A stretch of 64,000 nt of DNA from Acidobacteriaceae bacterium. GTDB lineage: Bacteria; Acidobacteriota; Terriglobia; Terriglobales; Acidobacteriaceae. Numbering within the stretch: the first letter of the stretch is position 1; each line of letters opens with the position of its first letter. The stretch lies in NCBI GenBank assembly GCA_003131585.1, contig PKVW01000027.1, forward strand, positions 16,549 through 80,548, given 5' to 3'. The notes under the pieces were generated by a model. The model was not told the origin of the DNA. It searched no databases and saw only the letters and a program-made list of their open reading frames with translations. Shown piece after piece: positions 10,853 to 28,427 of this stretch. The translations under genes and the position numbers were made by a program.

Positions 10853-11716
10853 ATGCTGAAAAGGGGATTCAAGCACCTTTCGCGCGTCAGCGACGTATTT
10901 TTTCGCAAGCTCAGAATCGAGCGGGACATCACAATCTTTCCCAATGACGCGTTTCTTACCTCCTATCCGCGATCGGGCAATACATGGACGCGCTTCCTGA
11001 TTGGCAATCTGGTTCATCAGAACGAGGCGGTCACCTTCCTTAGCGTCGAACGGTTAGTTCCCGACATGTACAAGCATTCGGACCGCACGCTGCGCAACCT
11101 TCCGCGGCCGCGCATCTTGAAGAGCCATGAATGCTTCGATCCCCGATACAGGAAGGTCATCTACATCGTGCGCGACCCGCGAGATGTCGCGGTGTCCAAC
11201 TATCACTGGGAACTCAAGTTGCGATCCGTAAGGGAAGGGCATGCAATCGACGATTTCGTGCGGCGCTGGATGTCGCCGCAATTCTGGCCCCGCATCGGCT
11301 CCTGGGGTGATCACGTAGGCAGTTGGTTAGGCACCCGGCAGGGGCACGAGGGTTTCCTGCTGTTGCGCTATGAAGATCTGAAAGAAAACCCGCAGCGTGA
11401 GCTGGCGCGGGTCGCGGAGTTCCTGGGAATCTCGGCCACACGGGAGCGTATAACCCGGGCTGTCGAGTTGAGTTCCGCCGAAAACATGCGAAAGCTGGAA
11501 AGCGAGGAGAGTGGAAAATGGGTGGCGACCACGCTCACGCGCCAGGACAAGCCCTTTGTCCGCAACGCCATCTCTGGCGGTTGGAAAACTGTACTGCCGG
11601 AAAAAACCGTCGCATACATCGAAACGCATTGGGGCCACCTGATGCAAGATCTTGGGTACGAATTAGCGACGCCAGTTCTCAACCCTGCCGCAGCAGCCTT
11701 CCACCAGAAGAAGTAA
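10853..11716 (+). CDS. PAPS-dependent sulfotransferase
   Basis: 5'-PSB-like loop YPRSGNTWTRF and 3'-PB-like IYIVRDPRDVAVS. Strong paralog of 27588-28427, with shared blocks PRPRI(L/V)KSHECFDPRY, FLLLRYEDL and RQDKPFVRNA.SGGWK. Confidence 0.85.
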   Translation: MLKRGFKHLSRVSDVFFRKLRIERDITIFPNDAFLTSYPRSGNTWTRFLIGNLVHQNEAVTFLSVERLVPDMYKHSDRTLRNLPRPRILKSHECFDPRYRKVIYIVRDPRDVAVSNYHWELKLRSVREGHAIDDFVRRWMSPQFWPRIGSWGDHVGSWLGTRQGHEGFLLLRYEDLKENPQRELARVAEFLGISATRERITRAVELSSAENMRKLESEESGKWVATTLTRQDKPFVRNAISGGWKTVLPEKTVAYIETHWGHLMQDLGYELATPVLNPAAAAFHQKK

Positions 11717-11734
11717 AGTTTGGAATATGACCAC

Positions 11735-12856
11735 TTAGAAGTTGCGGGGCAATCCGTCGCCATCCGCGCGGGTGAAGTGGATCCGAGACTGGGTCTCCGC
11801 AAACGGTTGCAGCAGAGCGCTCAACTTCTTCCCGGCGGCAAAAATGAAGTTAGACGGCGAGTGCAAGAAGCCGGCATGCTCAAGAGCGCGAGCCCACAGA
11901 CGATGGCTCTGATTGGAGACGATCAGATCCACTCCGTTATCCACTAGGGCTGCCGAAGCCGCCTGCATTACTGGCAAGGCGTCGTCCGGCGAAGCCCAGC
12001 AATCCACAATCGAACCCACGCGCATGGCGCCGTATTTTTCGTCCTTGCGGCGCTCTCCTACCACCGCCCACCCAATATCCCGCCCACTCCGGCGCACTCG
12101 CAGGCGGGTAAAATGTGTGTCGCTTGCGGGGTAGAGCGTGCGCAGGGTTTGACAATCCCGCACTGCCGTCATCGCATAGTGATTCTTCGCTTGCTCCCAC
12201 AGCGGATCGACCCAATCCGAAAAATCCTCGATTTTCTCCACCGTAAACGGTGTGAGTTTCGGGGCGCGCAGCTTTCGCAGACCCTGGATCGTCTTCACTC
12301 CAGCCCAACCCGTCCCTGTGAAGGCGGCCAGATTCAGCAGCAACCTGCGGGAGGGAGACGTGTGCAGGGCCTGCATTTCCTTGAAGAAACGGTTGGGGCG
12401 CGCAACATGGAAATAGAAAGGAACCAGAAAGTGGGCCCAGCCCAGGCGTGCCAGCATCTTCGGCAGGGGGCGGTCATAGCCACCCATGCCGAGGCAGTAG
12501 AGCAGCGGGGACCGGTTCATAGCATCTTTCAGCAACATGCTTCCCACTGCCGCATAAGACTTGTTGACAATACCCTCCGAAAGCGGATGGTGATAGTAGG
12601 CAACAGTGCGTGTGATGCCGTCTGCGAAGAAGAAGTCTTGTTGTTTCAGGGCATAGCCGCCGCGGACGACGCCATTCTCCAGGGCGACGAAATACCGCTG
12701 ATACAGTTTGGCTCCCTCGGCAGGGGGTAGCCAGCGCGGTTGAGCGAAGCGAAAAAATATGAGGTCGAGTTCCGCGCCACCGGATTGCAGCCGTCGATTG
12801 AATTCCTGCACCGCCGGCTGGTGCTCTTCACGATATGGCTGGATGACGATAGGCAT
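11735..12856 (-). CDS. Putative GNAT-type acyltransferase (function uncertain)
   Basis: 373-aa ORF that ends the long minus-strand operon, 41 nt downstream of the ACP gene. The N-terminus IQPYREEHQPAVQEFNRRL and GVVRGGYALK resemble GNAT motifs. The assignment is weak. Confidence 0.45.
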   Translation of the reverse strand: MPIVIQPYREEHQPAVQEFNRRLQSGGAELDLIFFRFAQPRWLPPAEGAKLYQRYFVALENGVVRGGYALKQQDFFFADGITRTVAYYHHPLSEGIVNKSYAAVGSMLLKDAMNRSPLLYCLGMGGYDRPLPKMLARLGWAHFLVPFYFHVARPNRFFKEMQALHTSPSRRLLLNLAAFTGTGWAGVKTIQGLRKLRAPKLTPFTVEKIEDFSDWVDPLWEQAKNHYAMTAVRDCQTLRTLYPASDTHFTRLRVRRSGRDIGWAVVGERRKDEKYGAMRVGSIVDCWASPDDALPVMQAASAALVDNGVDLIVSNQSHRLWARALEHAGFLHSPSNFIFAAGKKLSALLQPFAETQSRIHFTRADGDGLPRNF

Positions 12857-12897
12857 GGCAACCGGCGGGCAAGTTGCGAAAGATTGACGGGTCGTGG

Positions 12898-13149
12898 CTA
12901 GCGCGAAGCTTTCTGTAGTTTGGTCTCGACCAGCCTGGCAGCTTCGCCAACGTTTCGCATTTGCTCCATTTCTTCCGGAGACAACTGAAGGCCAAATTTT
13001 TCTTCCAGCGCAAGCACAAAGTTCAAGTGCTGAGTGGAATCCCAGGCTTCGATCATTTCGGGCGAAGACTCAGCCACGATTCGATCCACAGGAACACCGA
13101 AAAGATCGGACGCTATGCTTCGCACCTGGTCCAGAATGGATGACGTCAA
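12898..13149 (-). CDS. Acyl carrier protein (stand-alone, 83 aa)
   Basis: TTG 13149 overlaps the FkbH stop (TTGA). Phosphopantetheine-site-like EAWDSTQHLNFVLALEEKFG, with the Ser at about residue 38. The 170-aa ORF-track version (to 13410) is an in-frame extension lying inside the FkbH gene. Confidence 0.75.
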   Translation of the reverse strand: MTSSILDQVRSIASDLFGVPVDRIVAESSPEMIEAWDSTQHLNFVLALEEKFGLQLSPEEMEQMRNVGEAARLVETKLQKASR

Positions 13150-15038
13150 TTGTGCTCTCCCTCGGCAGTCTTCAACCGGATCCACGCCGGAGTGGCGATT
13201 GTATGATGCCGCAAGTCCAAGGTCCAAACCGAGCCGTCGCGATTCTCCTCGAGAAGTTGAAAGCCATGCCGGGCATAAAAGTCGCGCGCGGGGGCATTCT
13301 TCCTGGTGGGCGAGAAACGTCCGGCGAGACGCTGGCGGCCGCGAGCCACGGCGCCCTGAGCGACATGCGAGAGAAGTGCGGTTTCCACGGTTCTGCCAAT
13401 GACGCGGCAACTGAGCAGGAAGGTTTCAATCTCGCAGGTTTCGGCCTGGTCGCGGGTAATGGCCACGCCAACCAAACCGTGGTCCCCAAACCGGTCCCGC
13501 ACCTTGATGGAGAGGACTTGCCATCCAGGACGAGCGGCCATGTCCGCGATCTGTTGCTCGGTGTGGCGCTGGGTGGTCAGATTGAATTGATTCGTCTTTT
13601 GCGTGAGTTGCGCAACCCGGGCCAGCGTCGCCGGTGACACCGGGAGGACTTCCGCCTCCTGCTCGAGGTAACGAAAGAAGTCCTCCTTGCTTTGGAAGGC
13701 CTGTTCCGTCTGTGAGCGCTTCCGCCGCACCGCATAGAGGGTGGTACGCTGCGAATCTTCGCTGGAAAGCGAAAGGCGTTCGAATACCGGGCAATCTCGA
13801 ACCGCGGCAGCGTAGGCCTGCGGATCTTCGGGCAGATCGACGATCGTGACCTCTGGGAGGGCACTGCGAACTTGTTGCCGCTCTACCGGGTTGTCGTCGA
13901 GAAAAGCGAGGGCCTCCATTCCGACGTTCAATTCGGCGGCGATTTCGCGCAGATTCTGCGCTTTGTCGTTCCAATCGATGCGCACGGCTGCGAAATGCTT
14001 CGGCGTTAGCAACATTCCCGGGTGATTCTCCAGCGCTTCCATCGCATCTTCAAGATTATTCTTGCTGCAGATGGCCAGCAGAATTCCTCGCCGCGCCAGA
14101 TCCAACATGGCCCGCTGCAAATTTTGATACGCCGCGCCGGGGTACTCCGGGCCGAGTTTGATTCCGGTCATGCCATCTTCACCGATCACGCCTCCCCACA
14201 GCGTATTGTCGAGGTCGGTTACGAGCACCTTGGCAGTCTTGCCGGCAAGAGGAACCAGAAAGCGCAACCATTCGCGAGCGAGGTAAACGAGGTGGTCCGC
14301 GGCAATGGGCATTCTGGCAATCAGCCATTTTCGTTCGTCATGCCAGTGCAAGCGGCCATAGCGGGCGACGAGTCCATCGTAATCGAGCGCGTAAACACCG
14401 CAATGTTCACTCGCGATCTGCCTGAGTTCCTGGTTGATCTGCTGGATCGCGGCGGATTGACCTTTATTTTCCTGCGCATCAAGAAGTCCCATGCCCGGAC
14501 GCGCGGGGAGTTCGAGGGAATGCACCACCAGCGCGGCTGAACTGCGTTCCCGAAATGCCCGGACCCACTGGCGGAAGCTGTTGGAGACGCGCCGCACTAC
14601 CGCAGGGACCGCTTCCAGCGCGAGGTCCGGATACTCGTGCCACAGGTCGGGCGCGAGGTCCGCTGTCCTCGCCGCAAGAATTACGGCGTCGGGGGCAAAA
14701 CGGTAAAGGGAACTGTCCGGGTCGAGGATTTCTTGCGCGTAGGCGTTAAAGTCGCCGAGTTGGACGGTCAAATCGATTCCATGTACAAAGGCATCGGCCC
14801 TGAGCAACGGAAGTACCGGCTCCACGGTGAAGGATCGTAAAATTGCGAGGCGATAGCAGACCAGAGGGAGTTTGCCACGTAGTTGTTCGTAGCGAGACAC
14901 CAGGAAGGCTGCGGCGCTGGCGCTCGCTTCGTTGCGCCAGAGTTCGGCGAGGCGCAGAGAAGCCAACTCCTCCGACCCAGCCGAGATCAGACGGTCAGCT
15001 TCGCTCCGCAGGTCCAAACCGCTAGGCTCCGAGATCAT
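13146..15038 (-). CDS. FkbH-like HAD-IIIC phosphatase/acyl-loading protein
   Basis: 630 aa. HAD-IIIC motif I VLVTDLDNTLWGGVIGEDG, motif II ICSKNN, and a C-terminal FkbH-type region with FLLSCRVIGR followed by a GNAT-like end (ARDFYARHGF). ATGA overlap with the upstream VOC gene. Confidence 0.85.
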   Translation of the reverse strand: MISEPSGLDLRSEADRLISAGSEELASLRLAELWRNEASASAAAFLVSRYEQLRGKLPLVCYRLAILRSFTVEPVLPLLRADAFVHGIDLTVQLGDFNAYAQEILDPDSSLYRFAPDAVILAARTADLAPDLWHEYPDLALEAVPAVVRRVSNSFRQWVRAFRERSSAALVVHSLELPARPGMGLLDAQENKGQSAAIQQINQELRQIASEHCGVYALDYDGLVARYGRLHWHDERKWLIARMPIAADHLVYLAREWLRFLVPLAGKTAKVLVTDLDNTLWGGVIGEDGMTGIKLGPEYPGAAYQNLQRAMLDLARRGILLAICSKNNLEDAMEALENHPGMLLTPKHFAAVRIDWNDKAQNLREIAAELNVGMEALAFLDDNPVERQQVRSALPEVTIVDLPEDPQAYAAAVRDCPVFERLSLSSEDSQRTTLYAVRRKRSQTEQAFQSKEDFFRYLEQEAEVLPVSPATLARVAQLTQKTNQFNLTTQRHTEQQIADMAARPGWQVLSIKVRDRFGDHGLVGVAITRDQAETCEIETFLLSCRVIGRTVETALLSHVAQGAVARGRQRLAGRFSPTRKNAPARDFYARHGFQLLEENRDGSVWTLDLRHHTIATPAWIRLKTAEGEHN

Positions 15039-15490
15039 TGCTCAGCGGACCTTCCTTGGCGCTCCAGATATTCCAGAAGGAGCTTGTTCTTGGTGTAGAC
15101 CCAGGCGATGCGGCGCCCTCCAAAGGCTACGGCAGGAAGCGGCGGCCTAACTACAAGTCCGCCTTGAGCGCGGCTCAATGCCAGTTGGTCTTCTAGATGG
15201 TCGATCTCATAGCATAAGTGGTGCAGGCCGCCACCGCGCTTCAAGAATGGGATGACCGGTGAATTCTCTCCCGCCGGTTCCACCAGTTCCAGCAGGGGAT
15301 TTGCGGTATGCCTGCCGCGCAGAAAAGTCACCCGGACTGCTTGATTGGGATCATGAAAGATTGTTCCATCCCACTCAGCCTGCAGCGAGTCGAGAAATCC
15401 CTGTACGGAGTTCTGGATGGAAGCGACCACGAAGCCTATGTGATGAAACGAGCCTTGTGGAAGGGCGATTGCACCCGTGGACGATTCCAT
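15035..15490 (-). CDS. VOC (glyoxalase / methylmalonyl-CoA-epimerase-like) family protein
   Basis: 151 aa. HHIGFVV metal-ligand motif near the N-terminus and a second half with LHHLCYEI. Translationally coupled to FkbH. Confidence 0.7.
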   Translation of the reverse strand: MESSTGAIALPQGSFHHIGFVVASIQNSVQGFLDSLQAEWDGTIFHDPNQAVRVTFLRGRHTANPLLELVEPAGENSPVIPFLKRGGGLHHLCYEIDHLEDQLALSRAQGGLVVRPPLPAVAFGGRRIAWVYTKNKLLLEYLERQGRSAEQ

Positions 15491-15534
15491 CTAGGCCGGG
15501 CGCCCCACCGGAAATGAGTTTTGTATCCACCGCA

Positions 15535-16920
15535 TCATTTCAGCTCGACAATAAAAACATCGGTCCGGTATTTGTCGCCGTTCGGTGTTTTTCCAAGCTG
15601 GTCTTCCCAGTCGGAAGTGAACATGAAGAAGCGTCCATCCTGCGAAACATTCCCCCGCGGGGTCGACCAGAAGCCGTTTCTGGCGGTGCTGTAGGTGTGG
15701 GCAAACCGCCAAACCTTGGAAGCCTTCCCATCCGTTTCCGCACAGTCGATCTCATTCTGCCAGGGCCCGGTCACAAGGGGCGCGGCTCCGGCCGTATCCG
15801 GATTCGTTGGTCGGTAAGTCGAAAAGCAGACCGGAGCGGAATCATTCGGATCCACATTGTTCCACGAGAAGTGAGAGTCGAACCAAAAATCTTTGGCAGG
15901 TTCCAAGCCGCCGATGATCGGAGTGGAGTTTTCCAGATGGTTCAGCGGCCTCATCCAGACATCCATGGGATGGATCCTGCCGGACGACCCGAGAATGTGG
16001 GAGTAGCCCAGCACATGATGTCCATTACAACCGCGGGAACAGACGTTGACATTCATGCCGTCGACCTCCCAAACTACCCAGCCATGGCCGATGCCGCCAC
16101 CCCCCCGCGTCATATACAGGAACTTTCCAGACTTCGCCATTCGGGCGTTATGAAGAAGAAAGCGATCGGCAATGGAAATCGTGCCCTTGGGTCCCCATTG
16201 GCCGCCGATTTCGCCGGTCTGCGTGTTATACCAGCGGCAGCCCTGCGTTCGGTCGTAGACATAGACCATGTAATTTTTGTCTTGCTCCGGCCCTAATGTA
16301 GTCATGAACCGGCTGTCATCGGCGCTGACGGTCACCGAGTGTCCCGAGTCGCGAGATCCGAGTTTGACGCATTTCGTGGCGTCGTTTATCTCGGTTACTC
16401 GCCCGCTTGAGGTGTCGTACTGCTCAAAGATCGGTTCCCGGTGATTCATGCCATAGAGGATGTTGGCCTGCCGGAAGCTAAACTGTGGTTCCGCTCCCCA
16501 GTTTAGACTCGGGTTCCTAGCCGGCCGTGCGGTCATGGTCGCGGGATCGAAATCGTAGGGCAGGAACGAGCCCCCGGAAGTAGTCACGTAGAACATCGTG
16601 GAGTCTTTGTTCCATGAATTTTGTTCCGCGGAGGAGGGTGTGAAGAGCGGGCGGCCGGCGTACTTTGGGTCCGATCTGCTATCGGTAACGCGCAGTATGC
16701 GAGATCCGAAACTCGGATCGTTGATAATCGATCCCGAGGGTCCGATCGCCGGCGGCTTTTCCGGGTAGGGTTCGACCCGCCGGTCCGTGCGTGCGCAGTA
16801 TTCCTGCGGTCCACAAGTGCCGCTCTGGGGTACATCATGGCGGACGGTGGCAGGGGTCTGCCCCGCCCAAGCGGCTGCGCTCAGTCCCAGTACCGTGAAC
16901 CGTCGAAGAAAGTGTTTCAT
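15535..16920 (-). CDS. Secreted beta-propeller-like protein of unknown function (paralog of the C-terminal domain of 34212-36527)
   Basis: ATG 16920 gives MKHFLRRFTVLGLSAAAWA-GQ (a Sec signal). Blocks shared with the paralog: GSRILRVTD, NTQTGEIGGQWGPKGTI, HFSWNNVDPND, WQNEI, VWRFAHT, VSQDGRFFMFTSDW, DVFIVELK. The ORF track extends it to 16950. Confidence 0.7.
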   Translation of the reverse strand: MKHFLRRFTVLGLSAAAWAGQTPATVRHDVPQSGTCGPQEYCARTDRRVEPYPEKPPAIGPSGSIINDPSFGSRILRVTDSRSDPKYAGRPLFTPSSAEQNSWNKDSTMFYVTTSGGSFLPYDFDPATMTARPARNPSLNWGAEPQFSFRQANILYGMNHREPIFEQYDTSSGRVTEINDATKCVKLGSRDSGHSVTVSADDSRFMTTLGPEQDKNYMVYVYDRTQGCRWYNTQTGEIGGQWGPKGTISIADRFLLHNARMAKSGKFLYMTRGGGGIGHGWVVWEVDGMNVNVCSRGCNGHHVLGYSHILGSSGRIHPMDVWMRPLNHLENSTPIIGGLEPAKDFWFDSHFSWNNVDPNDSAPVCFSTYRPTNPDTAGAAPLVTGPWQNEIDCAETDGKASKVWRFAHTYSTARNGFWSTPRGNVSQDGRFFMFTSDWEDQLGKTPNGDKYRTDVFIVELK

Positions 16921-17062
16921 TGCAAAGCTTAATAACGGTCGCGTTCCCATCGACCTGCTATGTAACCCTATTCTAATTAGTTATCGGAAGGCTGCCAACA
17001 CAGAGGAGTGCGTGCCAGAGCAGTTCCGGCGAGAATCGAGCTGCCGGAAGTTTGTGATCCGA

Positions 17063-18154
17063 TCAGTCCATGTCGCAGGTTGGGTCGGGGAGTTCCAGAG
17101 CGGCGAGATTGGCGAGACGGCCCACCGGGGTATTCAATTTGAGCCAAAGCTTGGTACTAAGAAAGTGCGGATAGACCGACGCGATACACTTCCACCGAAG
17201 CGCGACTCGCCGCTGTTCGGTGTCCAGGGTCAGCGGATAGCCGAATTCCTGAAGGCTCGGTCCGATGAGGGCTTCGAGCGCCGCCACCTGCCGATGAGAT
17301 AGGTTTTCTTTCCAGCGATTGACCGGGTTTTGCGTTTCTTTTCCGTCGCTCCGGAACGAGGAATTGGATTCGCGGAGCCGTCCTAAACCTGTTCTCTGGA
17401 TACGATCGAAGTCCAGGTCATGATCGAGAAAGTCTCCCAGCCGAGCCAAAGCGGGACGAGGCTGGGTCACGAGTTCTTCGTAGTGGATTTCAATGTAGTC
17501 GCTGGGAATCTGGCGGCCGTATTGCCGGCCCTTGTGCACCATCCAATCCCAATAAAGCGCCGTCTCCAACAAGCCGCGCGATTGCCGGCTCCAGGGGAAG
17601 GGCCGGAATTCCCCCATCTTCATGAGCGACAGGGCAACGTCACGTCCGTCCCGGATGATGTGCACGAACAGCGCATCCGGTATGTCCCTCTTGATTCGAG
17701 GCACGTGGAGGACACTGTCGGGATCGTAAACCGCCCATCTTTGTACGCCCTGGCTCTGTGCGATTTCGTCCATGACGATACGCATGAAGTCGCCCCCGTT
17801 GCGGCATTCCGCCAGCAATTTGGCGGAGAGTTGCCCTGCCTCCACTCCGGCGCGCGCGAATCCCTTGCTCTTCATCCATGTGCCGACGATCTTTTCCCGG
17901 TTACGAGGGTTCTCGAGAGAGCCGAAACGAGGTATCAGGATTTTGTAGATGGGGAGATAGCCACGATAGACGGCAAAATCGCCCGCGGACAGCAACGTGT
18001 CGTAAAGAAGATTCGTCCCGGAGCGATGGCAGCCCATTACGAAGACCGGGCGCCGCCTCCGCTCAGTGTCCGCAGGATTCTTGCTGCCTTGTGCGGAGGC
18101 GCCGCTCTCAGCGGTTCCAGTCATGAGCTTAATGCTTGAAGACGATTGTAGCAT
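17063..18154 (-). CDS. Sulfotransferase family protein (second type)
   Basis: VFVMGCHRSGTNLLYDTL (P-loop-like 5'-PSB) and VHIIRDGRDVALS (3'-PB-like). 363 aa with no signal peptide. Confidence 0.75.
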   Translation of the reverse strand: MLQSSSSIKLMTGTAESGASAQGSKNPADTERRRRPVFVMGCHRSGTNLLYDTLLSAGDFAVYRGYLPIYKILIPRFGSLENPRNREKIVGTWMKSKGFARAGVEAGQLSAKLLAECRNGGDFMRIVMDEIAQSQGVQRWAVYDPDSVLHVPRIKRDIPDALFVHIIRDGRDVALSLMKMGEFRPFPWSRQSRGLLETALYWDWMVHKGRQYGRQIPSDYIEIHYEELVTQPRPALARLGDFLDHDLDFDRIQRTGLGRLRESNSSFRSDGKETQNPVNRWKENLSHRQVAALEALIGPSLQEFGYPLTLDTEQRRVALRWKCIASVYPHFLSTKLWLKLNTPVGRLANLAALELPDPTCDMD

Positions 18155-18191
18155 CCGCGTAATTCTCTACTCCCCATTAGACGTTCTCTAT

Positions 18192-18983
18192 CTACGGGAG
18201 CGGGCTTGCGCGATGTAGCAAAGTGGAGCGCACACGATCATAGAAGGAGTTGCCCAGAATCCGCCTGGCAGTCTCGCGCAAGGTGCTCTGTGCGCGCATG
18301 CGCGACAATGAGCCGCCCTCGCAGATCGCGGCAAACGCGCTCAAGGGAACATCTCGCAACATCGCCACTCGGCCCAACGCAAAAACGTCTGTGTTTCTGG
18401 AATTCGCCTGAATGCGGCTGGTGGCCACCGTCCGGTAGCCGGCGGCGCGTGCCACGGTCACGACCCGCCGATCACAGCGACCTCCCGGGCACGAGAAGTG
18501 GTCCACTGGCTGGCCGACGATCTGTTCCAGTTGCGACTTGGCGTCGGAGATTTCGTGCCGCAGGCCGCTCTCGTCCAGATCGGTGAGATAGGGGTGAGTC
18601 ATCGAGTGGCAGCCGATTTCGAAACCCTGTCCGGCGAGTTCTTTGAGCTGAGCGGGTGAAAGATAGCCGGGCTTTCCCAATCTCCCGCAAGTGACGAAGA
18701 ACGTTGCGCTGAAGCCGGCTTGCCGCAGGATCGGAGCCGCTGCCACGAAGTCGGTTTCACAGCCATCGTCGAAAGTGATGGTCACGTTACGTCCCTCCGG
18801 AAATGCGAGAGATTGGCCCACGTTCAGCCCCCGCCATCCATTCCCCTTCAACTGATCCATTTGCGCGCGAAACCCGGCCTCCGGCAAGACATAACGAGCG
18901 TACCCGGGTTCGGGCTGGCAAAGACGCCGTCCCGGGATCTCCAACTCGTGATACATCAGAAAGACGATGGCATGTTTGGGCAT
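18192..18983 (-). CDS. Polysaccharide deacetylase (NodB homology domain)
   Basis: TITFDDGCETD (motif 1, Asp-Asp), FSATFFV, GCHSMTHPYL (His-His metal motif). Confidence 0.85.
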   Translation of the reverse strand: MPKHAIVFLMYHELEIPGRRLCQPEPGYARYVLPEAGFRAQMDQLKGNGWRGLNVGQSLAFPEGRNVTITFDDGCETDFVAAAPILRQAGFSATFFVTCGRLGKPGYLSPAQLKELAGQGFEIGCHSMTHPYLTDLDESGLRHEISDAKSQLEQIVGQPVDHFSCPGGRCDRRVVTVARAAGYRTVATSRIQANSRNTDVFALGRVAMLRDVPLSAFAAICEGGSLSRMRAQSTLRETARRILGNSFYDRVRSTLLHRASPLP

Positions 18984-19005
18984 CGAACAATCGCTTTGTC
19001 GAAAT

Positions 19006-20964: not shown

Positions 20965-21008
20965 ATTTCCTCAATCTTCCTGTTGGTGTGACGATCAACC
21001 TGTGATGA

Positions 21009-21785
21009 TCACGCCATCAACATGCGCGCGCCCGTGGCTAGCAGCACCGCGCAAAGTATGCGGCGCAGCCAGGGAACGGGAACCCGCGTACTCAAGTAGG
21101 AACCGAGCAGCCCGCCTGGAACCGAGCCGATCAAAAGCGCGCCGACGAGGTGAACGTCAACATTGTGCATCCGAAAATGGAGCAGACTGGTGACGCCGGT
21201 GAGAATCAGGGCGTGCACAATGTCGGTGCCCACCATGACCTTCGGTTGGAAGCTGTAGAACAGCAAAAGCATCATCATGACGATGCTGCCTGAGCCGACG
21301 GAGGTGATGCCTACCAGGAAGCCCGCCACCAAGCCGATGACGGACATTCCGAGAAACGACTTCGTGGTTGGAGGCCGCACGGCCGCCCCAGCGGCACGGT
21401 CCTCGATTTTCTTCTGAAAGAACAAGAAAGTCGGAATGCAAATCAGCAGAAATCCAACCGCAACCGTGATGAAGTGGTTGACGCCATTGCCGTAGACATT
21501 CCGCAGGTGGATCAGGAAACTTACGCCCAGATAGGATCCCGGAGCACTGCCGGCGGCCAGCGCCAAGACTACTTTGCGCCGGACCGTGCCCTTGCGCAGG
21601 TGAACGGCGCTGGCGCCGATCTTGGTGAGAAAGTTGAAAAGCGCGTCCGAGCCCACGGCTCGAAGGGGGGGCACGCCCAAACCGAAAATGAGGATCGGGA
21701 GCAGCAGAACGCCGCCCCCGACTCCCGTCATTCCAATGAGGGTCCCGACTCCAAAACCAATCAGGCTCTTGATCAGCAGATCCAT
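21009..21785 (-). CDS. TauE/SafE (DUF81) family anion permease
   Basis: 258-aa polytopic membrane protein. N-terminal GFGVGTLIGMTGVGGGVLLLPIL, with a repeat of the same motif type in the second half (GFLVGITSVGSGSIVMMML). Confidence 0.8.
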   Translation of the reverse strand: MDLLIKSLIGFGVGTLIGMTGVGGGVLLLPILIFGLGVPPLRAVGSDALFNFLTKIGASAVHLRKGTVRRKVVLALAAGSAPGSYLGVSFLIHLRNVYGNGVNHFITVAVGFLLICIPTFLFFQKKIEDRAAGAAVRPPTTKSFLGMSVIGLVAGFLVGITSVGSGSIVMMMLLLFYSFQPKVMVGTDIVHALILTGVTSLLHFRMHNVDVHLVGALLIGSVPGGLLGSYLSTRVPVPWLRRILCAVLLATGARMLMA

Positions 21786-21836
21786 GACCGTACCGGCTTC
21801 AGCCTCTCGTCATTTTCTGGCCTTATCAGAGCGCGT

Positions 21837-23582
21837 TTACAGCGACTCCGCAGCCGTTCCGATGAAGCCTTCCCTCTCCAGGTGCAGGATAATCTCCTGC
21901 GCCGCCTCTTCGGAGGACAAGTCACCGGTATTGATGGTGACTTCGGCATCGGCCGGAACTTCATAAGGATCCGAGATGCCCGTGAATTCTTTGAGAATTC
22001 CCGCGCGCGCCTTGGCGTACAGGCCTTTGCGATCGCGTTGTTCGCAGACTTCCACGGAGGTGGCGATGTGCACCAGAATGAATCCTCCGTAGGGCTCAAT
22101 CGTCTGCCGGACATGTTTGCGGGTCGCATCATAAGGCGCGATGGGAGCGCAAATGGCGATACCGCCATTCTTGGTGATTTCCGACGCAACGTAGCCGATG
22201 CGCCGGATGTTAATGTCGCGGTGCTCCTTGGAAAAGCCGAGTTCGGAAGACAGATTTTTGCGGACCAAATCGCCATCCAGCAAGGTGACGGGACGTCCAC
22301 CGGTTTCGAGAAACTTCGTCAGCAATACGTTGGCAATGGTCGACTTGCCGGAACCGGAAAGTCCGGTGAAGAAGATGGTCACGCCTTGCTTGTGACGGGG
22401 CGGGAAACTGCGGCGCAATTCAGCCACGACTTCGGGATAGGTGAACCAGGCGGGAATCTCGCGGCCTTCGTTCAGGCGTTGGCGAAGTTCAGTGCCGGAG
22501 ATATTCAGCACACGATCCCCCTTCTTGACTTCGTCGTCGGGAACGTATTTGTCCTGATCCTCGAGGTACACCATCATGTTGAAGGGCACCATGGTGACGC
22601 CGATGTCGGCTTCGTGTTTTTTGAACACTTCCTGGGCTTCGTAGGGCCCGTAGAAGGGTTTGCCGTCGGTGTCCTTGCCGGGACCGGCGTGATCGCGGCC
22701 CACGATGAAGTGGGTGCAGCCGTGGTTCTTGCGAATCAGCGCGTGCCAAATGGCCTCGCGCGGTCCACCCATGCGCATGGCGAGCGGCAGTAGGGAAAGT
22801 TTTACCGTTCCCTGAGGGAACTTCGGCAGCAGCAACTGGTAGCAGCGAACCCGGGTAAAGTAGTCGACATCCCCCGGCTTGGTCATGCCCACGCTGGGGT
22901 TGATGAGCAGGTTGGCTTCGACCTGCTTGGCGGCGCGGAACGCGAGTTCGACGTGGGCGCGGTGCATGGGGTTGCGAGTCTGGAAGGCGACCACACGGCG
23001 CCAGCCCGCCCGTGCGAACTCGGCGCGCACCTCGGCCGGAGTCAAACGCAGGTTGCGAAAATCATAGTGGGACGGGATCTGAGTTCCCTCTAGCTTGCCT
23101 CCGACGTACCAGGGATTCGCCTTGTTGATGGCGTAATCGGCGCCCGGATGGGCAGCGCTGGTGCTGGCGAAAACGGCCTTGGCCTCCGCCTTACGGTCTG
23201 GTTGCCAAACTTCTTCCACATGCAACACCGCCAACATCACGCCTTCCGGATCGCGCAGCGCGATTTTGCTCGTGCCGGGGATTAGCTTCCTGGCAAATTC
23301 CTCAGTCACATCCAGCGTGATAGGCATGGGCCAGAGCGTCCCGCTGGCCAGTCGCATGTTGTGGCATACGCCATCGTAGTCGGCGCGTGTCATGAAGCCC
23401 CGCAGTGGAGAAAACCCGCCGGTAAGCAGCAACTCAAGATCACAAAGCTGGCGGCCGGTCAGGTCCCATGAAGGCCACTCTTTCGAATGGGATTTCAATT
23501 CGGCAATTCTCTCGGGTTGAGCGATGAGTTGAACAAGTTCTCCGCCGTGGGGCGGAATGAGATGGCTGGTCGAAGCGGTCAA
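21837..23582 (-). CDS. sat/cysC: Bifunctional sulfate adenylyltransferase / adenylylsulfate kinase (PAPS synthase)
   Basis: ATP-sulfurylase motifs VAFQTRNPMHRAHVEL and FIVGRDHAG. The C-terminal APS-kinase domain has an intact P-loop FFTGLSGSGKSTIA and LLDGDLVR. Confidence 0.92.
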   Translation of the reverse strand: MTASTSHLIPPHGGELVQLIAQPERIAELKSHSKEWPSWDLTGRQLCDLELLLTGGFSPLRGFMTRADYDGVCHNMRLASGTLWPMPITLDVTEEFARKLIPGTSKIALRDPEGVMLAVLHVEEVWQPDRKAEAKAVFASTSAAHPGADYAINKANPWYVGGKLEGTQIPSHYDFRNLRLTPAEVRAEFARAGWRRVVAFQTRNPMHRAHVELAFRAAKQVEANLLINPSVGMTKPGDVDYFTRVRCYQLLLPKFPQGTVKLSLLPLAMRMGGPREAIWHALIRKNHGCTHFIVGRDHAGPGKDTDGKPFYGPYEAQEVFKKHEADIGVTMVPFNMMVYLEDQDKYVPDDEVKKGDRVLNISGTELRQRLNEGREIPAWFTYPEVVAELRRSFPPRHKQGVTIFFTGLSGSGKSTIANVLLTKFLETGGRPVTLLDGDLVRKNLSSELGFSKEHRDINIRRIGYVASEITKNGGIAICAPIAPYDATRKHVRQTIEPYGGFILVHIATSVEVCEQRDRKGLYAKARAGILKEFTGISDPYEVPADAEVTINTGDLSSEEAAQEIILHLEREGFIGTAAESL

Positions 23583-23903
23583 GTCCTAAGCCTCCTGGAT
23601 TCTTACGTTTGTCTTGTCTACTACGTTTATTGTATTTGCTTGGATTGCTTCCCCAAACTTCATCAAGGCCGAGCAAAACCGGTTTGCAGATTCTTTAAGG
23701 GAGAGGGAAACCCCGATACGTTACCCCCCAGAATAACACTTCCAGGCGGCGGTAAGAAAGCTGGACTTGCGCGCTGCAATGACCAAAGAGTGAAAAACGC
23801 AAGGGCCTTCACCAATGGCAGTAGCCGTTTAAGTATTTGAAGCTAAACACGTTACCGGATGGCCGGCGGTGCCGTGCGGCCTTTTTGGGCGGGTTACATT
23901 GGT

Positions 23904-25439
23904 TCACAACTCGGAGGACTCGCCCGTCGGTCTGAAATAACGGGACATTCTGGTTTTGAATTGGATCCCCAGGGGTTCCCGCGTCAGGACAAACCAGAGA
24001 ACGCCAACGCCATAGGTCGCGATGCCGGCGAACAGATTCAGAACAAGCTGCGGATAGCGGTGGGCGTAGAAAGAGCGCTGCATCAAGAGCAGGACAAAAA
24101 TCATGGGCACACAAAAGACGACCGGGTAAAAGTAGGCTTCCATAAGGAATTTGCGGACGGGAATACCAAGCTGGCGGCACATGTGGCGTGGCAAAAAGAA
24201 CAGCGAGGTGCATAGCAATGGGATTGCGGTGCCGATCGCATCGCCAACGATTCCCAAGGGCCGAACCAGCACGATGCTGAGAATCACGTTGGCAATGCCT
24301 TCCATGAGAACGATATACGCCAGGGTTTTATGCCGGCTCATGCCGAATAAGATCCGGTTCGAAGTCGACTGAGCTTGGTAGAACGTAGAAGGAATCAAAA
24401 CAATCAGAAGGACGACGTAACTCGACACATAGCGCGGCCCTACCCAAGCTTCGATCACCGATTTGCCCATCACCACCAGAGCTACTGTCATGGGGAACAT
24501 GACCAGAGCGCAAGCCCGGTTTCCGGAAACGAAGATTTTCCGGAGCTGGTTGTAGTCCCCGATCGCATGAAAGTGACTGGACATGGGGGTGAAAATTTGC
24601 GCCAGGCTGCTCACCGTTTCCCCGGCGTAATCGACCAAGCGTGCTCCAATGGTGAAATGGGTGATTGCCGCCGCCGAAAGGAAGGTTCCAATGATGACTG
24701 CGTCCGTCTTAAACCGCAAACGGGCGGCCACAATAATCATAAAAGTGACCGAGCCGTAGTTGGCGACCTGCCGGAGAGACTCCCGGTCCACGTATTTCCA
24801 TCCGTACGGAATGGCCAGCAACCGTTGCGCGATCACCGCCCGAACCGCGGAGGTGATCAAGGGCAGGGACACGGTGATCAGAGCCACGCTGAGAAGTCCA
24901 AAACCGTGCTGGAGAACGTAGATGATCAGAACGGCCCGCACCAACATCGCGACGACGTTGGTCCAGTTCATCAGGTAGAACCTTTGCAGTCCCTCCAGGA
25001 TGCCTCCCGAGATGCCCAAGGGGAAACCAAGAGCTAAAGCGCATCCCACCATCAGAAACAGAATCCGGGCGTCTTTGAGAAAAGCGGCTGGAATGTGGAA
25101 AAGCCGATCCACATAGAAGCTGCCCAACACAGTCGGCACTACCAAGATCAGTCCGAGACAACTGTAGGTGAAAAGGCTGGTATTTATGAGCCGCGCGAGT
25201 TGGTCTTTGTCGCCGGTCGCCTGGAACTTTGAAACGTAGCGAACCAGGGAGGAGCGGATTCCGAAGTCGAAGATCCCGTAGTAGCCGGTCAAGGAGAAGA
25301 TCAGAACCCACAAGCCAAAGGCTTCGTCCCCGAGATGATGCAAGATAAATGGAGAGAGGAAAAAGCCGACAGCGATGTTCACCGCCAAGCCTCCCCAGCT
25401 CGACGCAACATTCTTCAGAGCCCGGGTCTTTAAACTCAT
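23904..25439 (-). CDS. wzx: Polysaccharide flippase (Wzx / MOP superfamily)
   Basis: 511-aa multi-pass hydrophobic protein. The N-terminus KNVASSWGGLAVNIAVGFFLSPFILHHLGDEAFGLW is typical of Wzx/RfbX-type transporters. It heads the long minus-strand operon. Confidence 0.8.
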   Translation of the reverse strand: MSLKTRALKNVASSWGGLAVNIAVGFFLSPFILHHLGDEAFGLWVLIFSLTGYYGIFDFGIRSSLVRYVSKFQATGDKDQLARLINTSLFTYSCLGLILVVPTVLGSFYVDRLFHIPAAFLKDARILFLMVGCALALGFPLGISGGILEGLQRFYLMNWTNVVAMLVRAVLIIYVLQHGFGLLSVALITVSLPLITSAVRAVIAQRLLAIPYGWKYVDRESLRQVANYGSVTFMIIVAARLRFKTDAVIIGTFLSAAAITHFTIGARLVDYAGETVSSLAQIFTPMSSHFHAIGDYNQLRKIFVSGNRACALVMFPMTVALVVMGKSVIEAWVGPRYVSSYVVLLIVLIPSTFYQAQSTSNRILFGMSRHKTLAYIVLMEGIANVILSIVLVRPLGIVGDAIGTAIPLLCTSLFFLPRHMCRQLGIPVRKFLMEAYFYPVVFCVPMIFVLLLMQRSFYAHRYPQLVLNLFAGIATYGVGVLWFVLTREPLGIQFKTRMSRYFRPTGESSEL

Positions 25440-25655
25440 TTCACCAAACTCATTTCACTTCGGCCCGATCTGTAGCAGGACGGCGCAAAAGACGGCTGGA
25501 TCGCTCGTTGGCGCTTGCTCCAAGGGTATTCGTTTCAGGTTGGCATAAAGTGCAGCCGATGTCCAGATAACCACGCATGCTAGAATCGGGGCGCTTTCGC
25601 TCAATACTAGCCGCGCGGATCGCCCAGCCCGGATCGGTATTGCGGAGCCATTCGG

Positions 25656-26279
25656 ATGCCCTCACCGGCCAGGTCCTTGTTCCGCGCACTACGGTGGCTG
25701 CTCGCCGCAGCAGTCGTGCTCGCTTTTTGTTTGCTGCGCTGGGGCGGCGACCTCTTGATCGCCAGCGACCCGGAGCCAGGGCACGTGGATGCGGCTATCG
25801 TGCTTCAGGGATCGATCACCGCCGAAAAAGTGCGCATCGCCGGAGCCATCAACTTGTTGCAGCGGGGTTTTGCCGACCGAGCCTTGCTTAGCGTTCCGAA
25901 GGAATCTTACTGGGGCCAGTCTATCCCACCGGTTGCCCGTTCCTATCTTGAACGGAACTACGGCAGCGCCCTGGCTGGCCGGGTCGACTTTTGCGAGACC
26001 AGCGGGGACGTGAACTCCACTGCGCAGGAGGCGCAGGCGCTAAACTCTTGCATCCGCGAGCGCCACTGGCAGTCGATCATGATCGTGACCTCGAATTATC
26101 ACACGCGTCGGGCAGGGATTCTCTGGAGACGGATGACCAGCCAGGACCCGAAGACTCACATCTGGATCGAAGGCGTGACGGACCCGGAGTTTCAGCAGCC
26201 CTGGTGGCGCCACCGTCAGTCTGCCAAGGTCTGGGTTATGGAAGCTGCGAAGTTGGTTTGGGTGGCGCTCGGAGGATGA
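25656..26279 (+). CDS. YdcF/SanA-like DUF218 family protein
   Basis: N-terminal TM segment, then AIVLQGS ... NSTAQEAQAL ... IMIVTSNYHTRRA, the characteristic DUF218 pattern. Confidence 0.75.
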   Translation: MPSPARSLFRALRWLLAAAVVLAFCLLRWGGDLLIASDPEPGHVDAAIVLQGSITAEKVRIAGAINLLQRGFADRALLSVPKESYWGQSIPPVARSYLERNYGSALAGRVDFCETSGDVNSTAQEAQALNSCIRERHWQSIMIVTSNYHTRRAGILWRRMTSQDPKTHIWIEGVTDPEFQQPWWRHRQSAKVWVMEAAKLVWVALGG

Positions 26280-26371
26280 TAGGATTTTTTTGACCCGCTT
26301 GGGCAGGAAAAGCTGCGCGAGTCTCGCGGCTCCCAGGTTCTTGCGGCCCAGCCCAGCAAGCAGAAAAAACC

Positions 26372-27547
26372 ATGAAGATGGCTTCGGACCAGAACCTCAC
26401 ACTAAGCGTTCACGAGAGTCTGGAGAGTCTGGAGCTCTTGCGGCCAGAGTGGGATACGCTGCTGGGAGAGTACCCATACTCCACCATATTTTCCACCTAT
26501 GAGTGGCTCGTGCCCTGGTGGCGAGCCTTCGGGGGCAAGGAGCGGCTAATGGTACTTGCCTTTCGCGACGCCGCTTCGGCGCTCGTGGGTCTGGCGCCGA
26601 TGGCTTTGACCACCCGCGGAGCGTTTCCGGCTCCGTTGCGCTCGTTGCGGCTGATGGGCGACGGCAGCCACGACTCCGACAACCTGGACCTACCGGTGCG
26701 ACCCGGCTGGGAGACGGCGTTTAGCCAGGCCCTGCTCGGCTGGATGCAGCAGAACGCAGAGCTTTGGGACGTTTGCGAGTTGAACACTCTTCCTTCCCAC
26801 TCTGCGTTGGGGGGAAAGCTCTTGGACGATCTGAGACAGCGCAAGTGGAAGTGTTTCGCTTCGACGAGGCCTCAGACCGTCGTGGAGTTGGCCGAGAGCT
26901 GGGAGTCCTACCTTAGGAGAATTTCAAGCAAGGAGCGGGGCAAGATTGGGCTGCGAACCCGGCGCCTGGAAAAGAAGTACGAGGTGCGAATTCGCAGGTG
27001 TGAAGAAGACGCTGAGATCGACTGTCTCCTGCGAGCCCTCTACGAACTGCACGGCAAGCACTGGCAACTGCGAGGTCTGCCGGGAACTCTGCATTCGTCG
27101 GGCCGCCGCCAGTTTTATGAGGAACTGGCCCGGCTCCTGTTGGCGCGCCGCCGGCTGGAGTTCTGGGTGCTCGAACTGAAGGGAAAAGTGGTGGCCGCAC
27201 AGTTTGGATTAAGGCACGGGACTACTGTCTTCTCGCTACAGGAAGGATTTGACCCGGACTATGCCGCCGACAGCGTGGGCTACGTTCTGCGCAGCCAAGT
27301 GCTGAAGCAACTGATCGCCGACGGAGTTCGCCGCTACGACTTCCTGGGCGGTACCGACGAATCGAAGATGCGCTGGGGCGCTGAGGTACAGAGCTATCTC
27401 AATCTCCACTTCGCGCGTCCACTCAGCCGGGGAAGTCTGCACCTTACTCTCAAGAACAAGAGTGCGCAGACCAAGGATTGGTTGCGACATCATTTGCCGG
27501 CGGGAATGTGGGGAAGCCTCAAAGGGGCAGTGGGGAAGGGGCGTTAG
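26372..27547 (+). CDS. CelD/BcsL-like GNAT-fold acyltransferase (Acetyltransf_6-like)
   Basis: LELLRPEWDTLL ... STIFSTYEWLVPWWRAFG ... FWVLELKGKVVAAQFGLRHG ... RRYDFLGGTDESKMRWGA, a layout typical of CelD-like proteins. Confidence 0.65.
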   Translation: MKMASDQNLTLSVHESLESLELLRPEWDTLLGEYPYSTIFSTYEWLVPWWRAFGGKERLMVLAFRDAASALVGLAPMALTTRGAFPAPLRSLRLMGDGSHDSDNLDLPVRPGWETAFSQALLGWMQQNAELWDVCELNTLPSHSALGGKLLDDLRQRKWKCFASTRPQTVVELAESWESYLRRISSKERGKIGLRTRRLEKKYEVRIRRCEEDAEIDCLLRALYELHGKHWQLRGLPGTLHSSGRRQFYEELARLLLARRRLEFWVLELKGKVVAAQFGLRHGTTVFSLQEGFDPDYAADSVGYVLRSQVLKQLIADGVRRYDFLGGTDESKMRWGAEVQSYLNLHFARPLSRGSLHLTLKNKSAQTKDWLRHHLPAGMWGSLKGAVGKGR

Positions 27548-27587
27548 CGCAGTGGGTTGCGGCCGCCGGTGGTGATCGACCTGGCGG

Positions 27588-28427
27588 TCAGCGGGTCACT
27601 GCTTCGTTTGCGGTCACCGGTTCGTAGCCCACGGAGCGCATCACGTCTCCCCATGCCGACTCGATCTGGGCGACACACCGCTCCGGCACGGTGGATTTCC
27701 AGCCGCCCGATGCCGCGTTGCGAACGAACGGCTTATCCTGCCGAGTCTTTCTGGTCTCCTTCCATTGGCGCGATTGTTCTTTTTCGAGCTGGCGCATGCG
27801 ATCCGCCGAGCTCAGGGCCACAGCACGTGCGATGCGCTCGAGGTTGGTATCGAGGCCAAGAAACGAGGCGATCTTCGTACTCTCCTTCTCGGTGTTGGCC
27901 AGCAGGTCTTCGTAGCGCAGCAGCAGGAAGCTCTTCTGGCCGCCGCGCGTGGCGGTCCAACTGACGACGTGATCTCGCCAGGAGCCAGTCTTGGGCTCGA
28001 ACTCGGATGCCATGAAACGCGGGAGGAATTCCTCCAAGCTGCACTCGTCGGAAATGACTCGGCGCTTAAGCTGAAATTCGTAATAGGAGATCAAGACGTC
28101 GCGGGGATCGCGCACGATGTATATGATTTTTTTGTACCGGGGGTCAAAGCATTCGTGGCTTTTGACGATACGGGGCCGCGGGAAAGCGCGCAGACTCCGG
28201 TCTGTGACGTCGTAAATTTCGGGGATGCGCGACTCCAGTCGAGCGAAATCAACCGGATCATCCGGATTCATCAGGTTGCAGACCAGGAAGCGGGTCCAAG
28301 TATTTCCAGATCTGGGGAAGGAAACCAGGAACGTGTCGTCGGGATAGACCGTGAGACCTCTCGCCGCGGGTTGCCGCTTCGTGACCACCCGGGCATAGGC
28401 CACCAGCTGTTTCTTCAGGTTCGACAT
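27588..28427 (-). CDS. PAPS-dependent sulfotransferase (paralog of 10853-11716)
   Basis: FPRSGNTWTRF, IYIVRDPRDVLIS, FLLLRYEDL, RQDKPFVRNAASGGWK. Confidence 0.85.
   Translation of the reverse strand: MSNLKKQLVAYARVVTKRQPAARGLTVYPDDTFLVSFPRSGNTWTRFLVCNLMNPDDPVDFARLESRIPEIYDVTDRSLRAFPRPRIVKSHECFDPRYKKIIYIVRDPRDVLISYYEFQLKRRVISDECSLEEFLPRFMASEFEPKTGSWRDHVVSWTATRGGQKSFLLLRYEDLLANTEKESTKIASFLGLDTNLERIARAVALSSADRMRQLEKEQSRQWKETRKTRQDKPFVRNAASGGWKSTVPERCVAQIESAWGDVMRSVGYEPVTANEAVTR

Follow-up and report, generated by a model that had tools for sequence, protein, structure and literature searches.

Sulfated bacterial polysaccharides have been held to be essentially confined to cyanobacteria in papers from both 2021 and 2026 (PMC8205485, PMC13390465). 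In Synechocystis sp. PCC 6803, the xss cluster on pSYSM is a Wzx/Wzy-dependent exopolysaccharide (EPS) cluster with two sulfotransferases of different subfamilies, and its product, synechan, is chemically sulfated (PMC8205485). The wps-1 cluster of Actinoplanes missouriensis is predicted to make a sulfated Wzx/Wzy EPS and combines two sulfotransferase families with an adjacent gene of the Sat/APS-kinase family (PMC13390465). For Acidobacteria, our literature search found nothing relevant on sulfotransferases or sulfated EPS, and the paper describing “Ca. Sulfotelmatobacter” makes no mention of sulfotransferases or of 3′-phosphoadenosine 5′-phosphosulfate (PAPS) (PMC6018796). Here, we analyze a polysaccharide locus of an Acidobacteriaceae bacterium that carries three predicted sulfotransferases (ST1, ST2 and ST3) together with a set of PAPS genes, Sat-CysC–TauE–CysQ (the cassette). 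It lies in a stretch of 64,000 nt, hereafter the window, at positions 16,549 to 80,548 of the forward strand of contig PKVW01000027.1 (GCA_003131585.1).

Like xss, the acidobacterial locus is a Wzx/Wzy locus with several sulfotransferases among glycosyltransferases, and ST3 is a distant homolog of XssE (26.7% identity to the gene at the XssE position on pSYSM, E 1e-9). The xss region, however, is without sat, cysC, cysQ and tauE, whereas the locus studied here adds an FkbH enzyme with its acyl carrier protein (ACP), a tandem-GNAT acyltransferase, a deacetylase and an amidotransferase, belongs to another phylum, and has a sulfated product that is predicted. Neither ST1 nor ST2 found a match on pSYSM. 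With ST3 at so low an identity and ST1 unmatched, membership in a synechan-type cluster was rejected. The rhizobial NodPQ system with NodH or LpsS is alike in joining a dedicated PAPS supply to a glycan sulfotransferase, with a NodB-type N-deacetylase in the same pathway. There, PAPS comes from CysD/CysN-CysC, whereas here a Sat-type homo-oligomeric ATP sulfurylase is fused to a kinase of adenosine 5′-phosphosulfate (APS). The NodH acceptor is a chito-oligosaccharide signal, as opposed to the polysaccharide repeat unit predicted here, and the rhizobial sulfotransferases, the best plasmid-borne relatives of ST1, are only distantly related (27–29% identity). Compared by published gene content, wps-1 also shares a methyltransferase and a kinase-like protein (compare the 882-aa protein at 31483-34131), but it belongs to an actinomycete, no CysQ or TauE is reported for it, and its product is likewise predicted. 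The logic of sulfotransferases in a Wzx/Wzy locus with PAPS supply and by-product removal is thus already known from xss and NodPQ/NodH, and what is new is the phylum. The original prediction considered the enzymes probably undescribed. As judged from sequence, ST1, ST2 and ST3 indeed have no close characterized homolog, but the novelty is lower than was implied because sulfotransferase-bearing Wzx/Wzy loci (xss, wps-1) and a dedicated PAPS supply (NodPQ) are known.

All three sulfotransferase genes were found where they had been placed (Table 1), with profile E-values far beyond chance. Profile hidden Markov models (HMMs) assign ST1 and ST2 to Pfam Sulfotransfer_1 (gathering cut-off 22 bits) and ST3 to Sulfotransfer_3, each above threshold, and the motifs first quoted for them are in the translations: PRSGNTW and RDPRDV in both ST1 and ST2, HRSGTNL and RDGRDV in ST3. 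ST1 and ST2 are paralogs with 53% identity. Aligned with human SULT1A3 (1CJM, E 7e-28), ST1 keeps the 5′-phosphosulfate-binding (PSB) loop, the catalytic histidine, the R...S 3′-phosphate motif and the C-terminal GxxGxWK, as seen in the pairs PRSGNTW/PKSGTTW, KSH/KSH, RDPRDVAVS/RNPKDVAVS and RNAISGGWKT/RKGMAGDWKT. ST2 has the same motifs, and in both proteins the PSB-loop lysine of SULT1A3 is replaced by arginine. In ST3, the PSB residues R44, S45, G46, T47 and N48 and the 3′-phosphate-binding (3′PB) residues R168, D169, G170, R171 and D172 with S176 are invariant among 44 homologs. With respect to the catalytic base, the same set has H43, D146, H165, E222 and E226 as further invariant acidic or histidine residues. 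The best PDB sequence match of ST3 is weak (E 0.018); its AlphaFold 2 (AF2) model (pLDDT 80, pTM 0.81) has a sulfotransferase fold by Foldseek, with TPST1/2, the CurM sulfotransferase domain and Stf9/Stf1 matched at a probability of 1.0. From these features, all three enzymes look catalytically competent. Inspection of the translations revealed no hydrophobic N-terminal segment in any of them, which fits a cytoplasmic use of PAPS. Homologs at E <1e-5 number more than 7,700 for ST1 and more than 2,100 for ST3, mostly in metagenome collections, and the few with a named source are metagenome-assembled genomes (MAGs) of Acidobacteriota.

PAPS is the sulfate donor for the sulfotransferase fold, and CysQ clears the inhibitory by-product 3′-phosphoadenosine 5′-phosphate (PAP). 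The predicted Sat-CysC fusion was recovered with both domains matched in Pfam and with QTRNPMHRAH and GLSGSGKST intact. Its sulfurylase half is nearly colinear with the active Penicillium chrysogenum enzyme 1I2D, with QTRNPMHRAH and GRDHAG identical. The kinase domain keeps the GLSGSGKST P-loop and LDGD and is closest to Thiobacillus denitrificans 3CR8 (E 1e-78) and Aquifex aeolicus 2GKS (E 7e-54), in which the sulfurylase is likewise followed by the APS kinase. The window protein differs from these two in having an N-terminal PUA_2 domain and the QTRNPMHRAH motif as in fungal 1I2D, and it differs from 1I2D in its intact P-loop, given that the C-terminal domain of the fungal enzyme is regulatory with a degenerate P-loop (GYMNSGKD). 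A TauE/SafE permease had also been called correctly. Genes from 25439 down to 11735 are all on the minus strand, with gaps of at most 142 bp or 4-bp overlaps. Only between Wzx and Sat-CysC is the spacing wider (321 bp). The PAPS genes do lie downstream of the flippase in one gene string.

The setting is a polysaccharide locus, as had been stated. Wzx, glycosyltransferases, a sugar dehydrogenase, WecB and deacetylases are in the window, and the contig continues upstream (L086) with a second amidotransferase, Wzy_C, GT4, GT2 and an initiating Bac_transf, all within 10 kb. With Wzx, Wzy_C, the initiating Bac_transf, GT4 and GT2 all in one locus, its gene content is that of the Wzx/Wzy-dependent heteropolysaccharide type (probably EPS or capsule type). 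Among the fetched comparison loci (numbered with the prefix L), L083–L085 have orthologous backbones, with sulfotransferases there too. The locus resembles the XrtA/PEP-CTERM type of EPS locus, but membership was rejected because every curated XrtA model scores below its cut-off (TIGR03108 605/817, TIGR03088 230/409, TIGR03019 46/260 and TIGR03006 31/276, score/cut-off), and no exosortase gene was seen in the window. The source is an uncultured Acidobacteriaceae or “Ca. Sulfotelmatobacter”-like genome from peat or soil. Proteins identical to those of the window are present on metagenome contigs of 190–290 kb, and the nearest genomes by Sat-CysC (88–94% identity) are MAGs named “Ca. Sulfotelmatobacter”, Acidobacteriaceae or Terriglobales, with isolate labels that include the MFD and SPRUCE series.

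With gene identities, motif integrity and synteny patterns in hand, we consider cytoplasmic sulfation of a lipid-linked repeat unit, leading to a sulfated surface polysaccharide, to be the best explanation of the locus and a fairly probable one. Sulfate would be taken up by the TauE/TSUP permease and turned by Sat-CysC into APS and then PAPS. The three cytoplasmic sulfotransferases would use PAPS to sulfate the undecaprenyl-diphosphate-linked repeat unit or its substituents, the unit would be flipped over the membrane by Wzx and polymerized by Wzy, and the CysQ-like phosphatase would hydrolyze the inhibitory PAP. Other decorations may include N-deacetylation, N-acylation (by the FemAB-like and tandem-GNAT enzymes, possibly with glyceryl from FkbH-ACP), amidation and methylation. 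In this scheme, we infer the acceptors, the sulfate positions, the direction of TauE transport, the choice of a polysaccharide over another glycoconjugate as target and, purely by inference, sulfation at up to three chemically distinct positions.

Several observations weigh against this explanation. The CysQ-like protein, proposed as a PAP phosphatase, does have the motif first quoted for it (WVVDPLDGTREF) and an Inositol_P match, but its best NCBIfam match, TIGR01331, reaches 125.1 bits and misses the cut-off of 228.8, HisN and SuhB models score similarly, and in the PDB it matches inositol monophosphatases best, slightly ahead of the CysQ entries 3B8B and 5DJF. Because the TIGR01331 threshold is not reached, the assignment depends on conserved gene context: 47 of 80 species-representative Sat-CysC loci, the set used for all synteny counts, have a homolog no more than 2 kb downstream of Sat-CysC and in the same orientation. 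PCP/OPX export genes were not seen on the contig, covered to 10 kb beyond the window. The structures nearest to ST3 are protein-tyrosine and polyketide synthase (PKS) sulfotransferases and not carbohydrate sulfotransferases. Finally, the closest relatives L003, L004, L007 and L012 have the cassette but no sulfotransferase within 10 kb. In L003, CysQ is followed by an amino-acid permease and amine oxidases (L004 has the same pattern of unlabelled open reading frames, ORFs), and in L007 by an integrase, a group II intron reverse transcriptase and a serine recombinase. Hence, the cassette may be the general sulfate-activation module of the cell.

This last alternative survives best. It holds that Sat-CysC–TauE–CysQ is a general, possibly the only, sulfate-activation module that also feeds PAPS-dependent assimilation, so that the glycan would still be sulfated but without a dedicated “factory”; we think it quite possible, if on balance doubtful. 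Among close relatives, the cassette proteins are 84–94% identical at the amino-acid level, whereas the glycan genes beside them differ or are only 55–60% identical (55–59% for the adjacent Wzx), and the Sat-CysC and CysQ pairing reaches other phyla. The region upstream of the cassette is kept whether Wzx or a phosphopantetheinyl transferase (PPTase) gene precedes it, and the sulfotransferase-free surroundings in L003 and L004 point the same way. A parallel can be drawn with gnd and galF, which flank O-antigen loci. On the other hand, cysH, sir and cysDN were not seen next to the cassette in the 80 loci, and sulfotransferases recurrently adjoin it even in distant Acidobacteriota. A motif search of all fetched loci likewise revealed no CysH- or CysD-like ORFs, although it is a weak test. 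No sulfur genes were found in the contig stretch reaching 10 kb beyond the window. A separate dissimilatory sat is reported in some “Ca. Sulfotelmatobacter” MAGs (PMC6018796).

Even so, the cassette retains a link to sulfation. Narrow family HMMs place a sulfotransferase-like ORF no farther than 10 kb from the Sat-CysC homolog in 18 of the 80 loci, including 12 of approximately 34 of the Acidobacteriaceae type, and TauE adjoins Sat-CysC in 25/80. In L042 (Marinacidobacterales) and L055 (Vicinamibacteria), with Sat-CysC 70–72% identical to that of the window, a small ORF lies just after CysQ; it matches Pfam Sulfotransfer_3 in L042 (7e-17) and gives a weak narrow-HMM match in L055 (E ~9e-4). 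In these two loci (L042 8122-17434, L055 8267-15286), a DUF4388-PilZ protein precedes Sat-CysC–CysQ, with GGDEF in L042 too; the small ORF is on the opposite strand, and large proteins of the Phosphodiest family come after it (of which two were scanned in L042 and one in L055). This arrangement is a hint that sulfation modules linked to c-di-GMP exist elsewhere in the phylum. Separately, MAGs labelled Verrucomicrobiae (L030, L032–L035) have Sat-CysC 77–81% identical to that of the window, and an ST1/tandem-GNAT/FkbH block (P0210/L089) in MAGs so labelled is approximately 75% identical. These matches reflect either mis-binning or mislabelling, or transfer between phyla.

Comparison with the closest relatives also shows how the locus is built. 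In L003 and L004, the gene order is GAF protein – Sel1 protein – WecB – GT2 – PPTase – Sat-CysC – TauE – CysQ, and the counterpart of the GAF-to-PPTase block is at 36.7–44.6 kb of the window. Relative to these loci, approximately 13 kb (23600-36700) is inserted between PPTase and Sat-CysC, with Wzx, DUF218, an acyltransferase, ST2, a methyltransferase, a deacetylase, the 882-aa methyltransferase protein and the He_PIG protein. The insert, together with the mobile-element genes at the same junction in L007, suggests a recombination hot spot for glycan-modification genes. From this pattern, the cassette is better described as a vertically conserved anchor, kept across the lineage, at the edge of a hypervariable modification island, serving the island and apparently not private to one variant. 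Of the proposed “own PAPS factory”, the intact PAPS pathway genes stand, but exclusive ownership does not fit a cassette that is conserved across the lineage, has its own 5′ region and occurs in sulfotransferase-free neighborhoods in L003 and L004.

Approximately 230 nt 5′ of Sat-CysC are kept in L003–L012, whichever gene is upstream, and include CAAATACAATAAACGTAGTAGAC, an A-rich box that contains a TACAAT element. Relatives also have a palindrome, TGCGCAA-N4-TTGCGCA, approximately 300 nt upstream. An Rfam scan of the whole window gave no family at gathering score, and hence no riboswitch upstream of sat-cysC, and RNAalifold found no supported structure in the conserved 5′ region (-1.9 kcal/mol). 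A scan for sigma-70 promoters and terminators over 10.5–29.9 kb was uninformative, with counts at or below shuffled expectation. Conservation regardless of the upstream gene, with no RNA structure, fits a promoter or operator of its own, and the region is probably the promoter and operator of an unknown regulator.

If a glycan is sulfated, the product could also be lipopolysaccharide (LPS) O-antigen or core, or another lipid-linked glycoconjugate (as with LpsS and NodH), and not a released EPS. O-antigens are also made by Wzx/Wzy loci, WecB and GT2 are nearby, and PCP/OPX genes were not seen on the contig. The JGI name for ST3 homologs, “LPS sulfotransferase NodH”, seems to agree, but it is a COG label and not evidence. 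The homologous L085 backbone has a BY-kinase-like AAA_31/ParA-type gene adjoining Bac_transf, which is typical of EPS or capsule loci, and we hold the LPS alternative to be unlikely.

The structural neighbors of ST3 raise a different alternative, in which it is a tyrosine or peptide sulfotransferase (TPST/RaxST-like) acting on a secreted protein such as the 471-aa or He_PIG protein of the window. TPST1/2 are its top Foldseek neighbors (E 5e-8 to 1e-6), ST3 is in the PF13469 family, and the gene immediately downstream encodes the 471-aa protein with its signal-peptide-like N-terminus; its RDGRD 3′PB motif also resembles that of TPST. However, ST3 orthologs are in EPS loci without the 471-aa gene (L083–L085, L088), ST3 is often paired with a polysaccharide deacetylase, and one of its homologs, XssE, belongs to a glycan cluster. 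By inspection, and not by rigorous alignment, no glutamate is visible in ST3 where TPST has its catalytic base. We consider a peptide substrate very improbable. No more credible is that one sulfotransferase acts on an FkbH-made, ACP-bound glyceryl unit, with the sulfate kept (sulfoglyceroyl) or used as a leaving group as in CurM and the sugar hydroxyls unsulfated: the ST3–VOC–FkbH–ACP–tandem-GNAT/ST1 block is conserved, and CurM and olefin-synthase sulfotransferase domains are among the best sequence and structure matches of ST3, but some loci with ST1 and tandem-GNAT pairs or with ST3 orthologs lack FkbH (L025, L052, L083–L085), and thioesterase or PKS modules are absent.

Table 1. Features of the polysaccharide locus in window coordinates, with the evidence for each assignment.
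Feature	Coordinates	Strand	Evidence
Double GT4 glycosyltransferase, conserved polysaccharide backbone	1263..3695	+	two-stretch NCBIfam GT4 matches; 782-aa double GT4 call in L086
Asparagine-synthase-type amidotransferase	3692..5626	-	TIGR01536 525 bits, above cut-off; TIGR03108 (XrtA type) 605 bits, below 817
Heparinase II/III-like protein	5674..8061	-	Pfam Hepar_II_III_N 7.6e-32, Hepar_II_III_C 4.6e-37
NDP-sugar (UDP-glucose-type) dehydrogenase	8195..9532	+	TIGR03026 387 bits, above cut-off; Pfam UDPG_MGDP_dh domains
FemAB-like Acetyltransf_6 acyltransferase (AcT6a), upstream of ST1	9605..10651	+	PF13480 1.3e-12
ST1, cytosolic SULT-like PAPS sulfotransferase	10853..11716	+	Sulfotransfer_1 E 2.4e-41, 142.3 bits, model 1-254 of 255
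Tandem-GNAT acyltransferase, 373 aa, undescribed family	11735..12856	-	AF2 pLDDT 89; Foldseek N-myristoyltransferase, FemX, Eis-like GNAT pairs E ~3e-9
Acyl carrier protein	12898..13149	-	PP-binding 1.2e-5, 25.9 bits, cut-off 20.8; 83-aa gene call in L001
FkbH-type glyceryl-ACP loading enzyme (GDSL-like N-terminal domain + HAD-IIIC)	13146..15038	-	TIGR01686 300 bits, cut-off 146.65; FkbH_N
Glyoxalase/VOC-fold protein	15035..15490	-	Glyoxalase_4 5.9e-15
471-aa protein, hydrophobic signal-peptide-like N-terminus	15535..16950	-	conserved beside ST3 or polysaccharide deacetylase (PD) genes in L031, L052, L089
ST3, Sulfotransfer_3-family PAPS sulfotransferase	17063..18154	-	PF13469 E 1e-23, 85.2 bits, cut-off 27 bits
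Polysaccharide (N-)deacetylase, directly upstream of ST3	18192..18983	-	Polysacc_deac_1 5.4e-28; NodB, PdaB, HfsH NCBIfam, sub-threshold
348-aa conserved protein between CysQ-like gene and deacetylase	19006..20052	-	orthologs at same position in L005, L011, L088, L089
CysQ-like IMPase-superfamily phosphatase, inferred PAP phosphatase	20143..20964	-	Inositol_P 1.4e-46
TauE/SafE (TSUP) anion permease, inferred sulfate supply	21009..21785	-	PF01925 9.3e-46
Sat-CysC, bifunctional ATP sulfurylase/APS kinase (PAPS synthase)	21837..23582	-	PUA_2; ATP-sulfurylase 6e-88, 294 bits; APS_kinase 3e-57, 193 bits
Upstream region of PAPS cassette	23583..23903	-	AGGAGG ribosome-binding site; TACAAT-containing A-rich box
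Wzx-type MOP flippase	23904..25439	-	Pfam Polysacc_synt_3 1.1e-12, MatE 4.4e-5
DUF218 protein	25656..26279	+	PF02698 9e-10
Second Acetyltransf_6 (FemAB-like) acyltransferase (AcT6b), convergent with ST2	26372..27547	+	PF13480 3.1e-30
ST2, ST1 paralog	27588..28427	-	Sulfotransfer_1 E 3.1e-38, 132.1 bits, model 1-252 of 255
S-adenosylmethionine-dependent methyltransferase upstream of ST2	28555..29532	-	Methyltransf_11 9.5e-22
Second polysaccharide deacetylase	29820..30791	+	Polysacc_deac_1 4.2e-25
882-aa methyltransferase-domain protein with weak kinase-like (APH) stretch	31483..34131	+	Methyltransf_11 3.5e-17; APH 2.4e-4, 21.4 bits, below 23.2
He_PIG/PKD Ig-domain protein	34212..36527	-	He_PIG 9.3e-22
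Sfp/HetI-type phosphopantetheinyl transferase	36754..37569	-	TIGR00556 47.9 bits, cut-off 45.35; sub-threshold NF042922 221/370, NF007676 75.7/174
GT2 glycosyltransferase, conserved block	38209..39009	-	NCBIfam GT2 matches; 86-90% identity in L003-L008
UDP-GlcNAc 2-epimerase WecB	39182..40399	-	TIGR00236 324 bits, cut-off 210

The genes around the sulfotransferases outline the other predicted decorations. A block of AcT6–ST1/tandem-GNAT–ACP–FkbH–VOC–ST3–deacetylase–348-aa–CysQ is found again on a 1.66-Mb contig of another species, and the AcT6–ST1-to-CysQ block recurs in part in L089, L025 and L052. The 373-aa tandem-GNAT protein matches nothing in Pfam, NCBIfam or the PDB sequences, yet it has 1595 metagenomic homologs; its gene is convergent with every examined ST1 ortholog of at least 62% identity and adjoins ST1 in L025, L052, L088 and L089. 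The FkbH and ACP genes are translationally coupled, with a 4-bp overlap of the ACP gene and the FkbH stop codon. The FkbH–ACP–VOC module, together with the PPTase, which could activate the ACP and whose gene is directly beside Sat-CysC in L003–L005 and L009–L010, suggests a carrier-protein-dependent acyl decoration of the glycan. Because deacetylase, tandem-GNAT and FkbH-ACP occur together, the gene set further suggests that N-deacetylation is succeeded by re-acylation and that sulfation adds one more step. AcT6a–ST1 and AcT6b–ST2 were considered as duplicated modules, but the idea was rejected as the two acyltransferases have no BLASTP similarity (best E 0.37).

Two proteins without assigned families accompany the ST3/deacetylase block in several species. 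The 471-aa protein has no Pfam or PDB match and contains many invariant Cys, Trp and His residues; the 348-aa protein has no significant Pfam or PDB match, with matches to beta-propeller families at an insignificant E ~0.1. Further out, at 41565-44623, a GAF-domain protein and a Sel1-repeat protein, both with zinc ribbons, stand beside the WecB–GT2–PPTase–Sat-CysC block in all close relatives and may be regulators of the region. At the far side, the transaldolase (54014-55276) and phosphoglucose isomerase (52296-54017) genes overlap by 4 bp, match the two halves of the fused Tal-Pgi model NF007080 and are part of a tkt-tal-pgi-gnd-zwf-glk-pgl pentose-phosphate cluster.

A bolder proposal, which we regard as improbable, is that glycosaminoglycan-like, heavily decorated sulfated polysaccharides are common in Acidobacteria of acidic soils and peat. 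They would follow a bacterial analogue of NDST logic, in which an N-deacetylase frees an amine, tandem-GNAT and FkbH-ACP re-acylate it (for example with glyceroyl), and sulfotransferases sulfate the amine, the acyl group or neighboring hydroxyls. Because soil metagenomes hold thousands of homologs of these sulfotransferases, the large ester-sulfate pool of soil organic sulfur could owe much of its biological input to such polymers.

Taken as a prediction from its genes, this acidobacterium probably makes a sulfated polysaccharide. Given that homologs of ST1 and ST3 are so many and that those with a named source are MAGs of Acidobacteriota, sulfation of surface glycans may be routine in a phylum that ranks among the most abundant in soil, with a conserved PAPS cassette at the edge of a variable EPS region. 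Chemical confirmation would connect acidobacterial EPS with the organic-sulfur (ester sulfate) pool of soil and peat, would be relevant to how acidic soils bind metals and retain water, and would provide new sulfotransferases for making sulfated polysaccharides.

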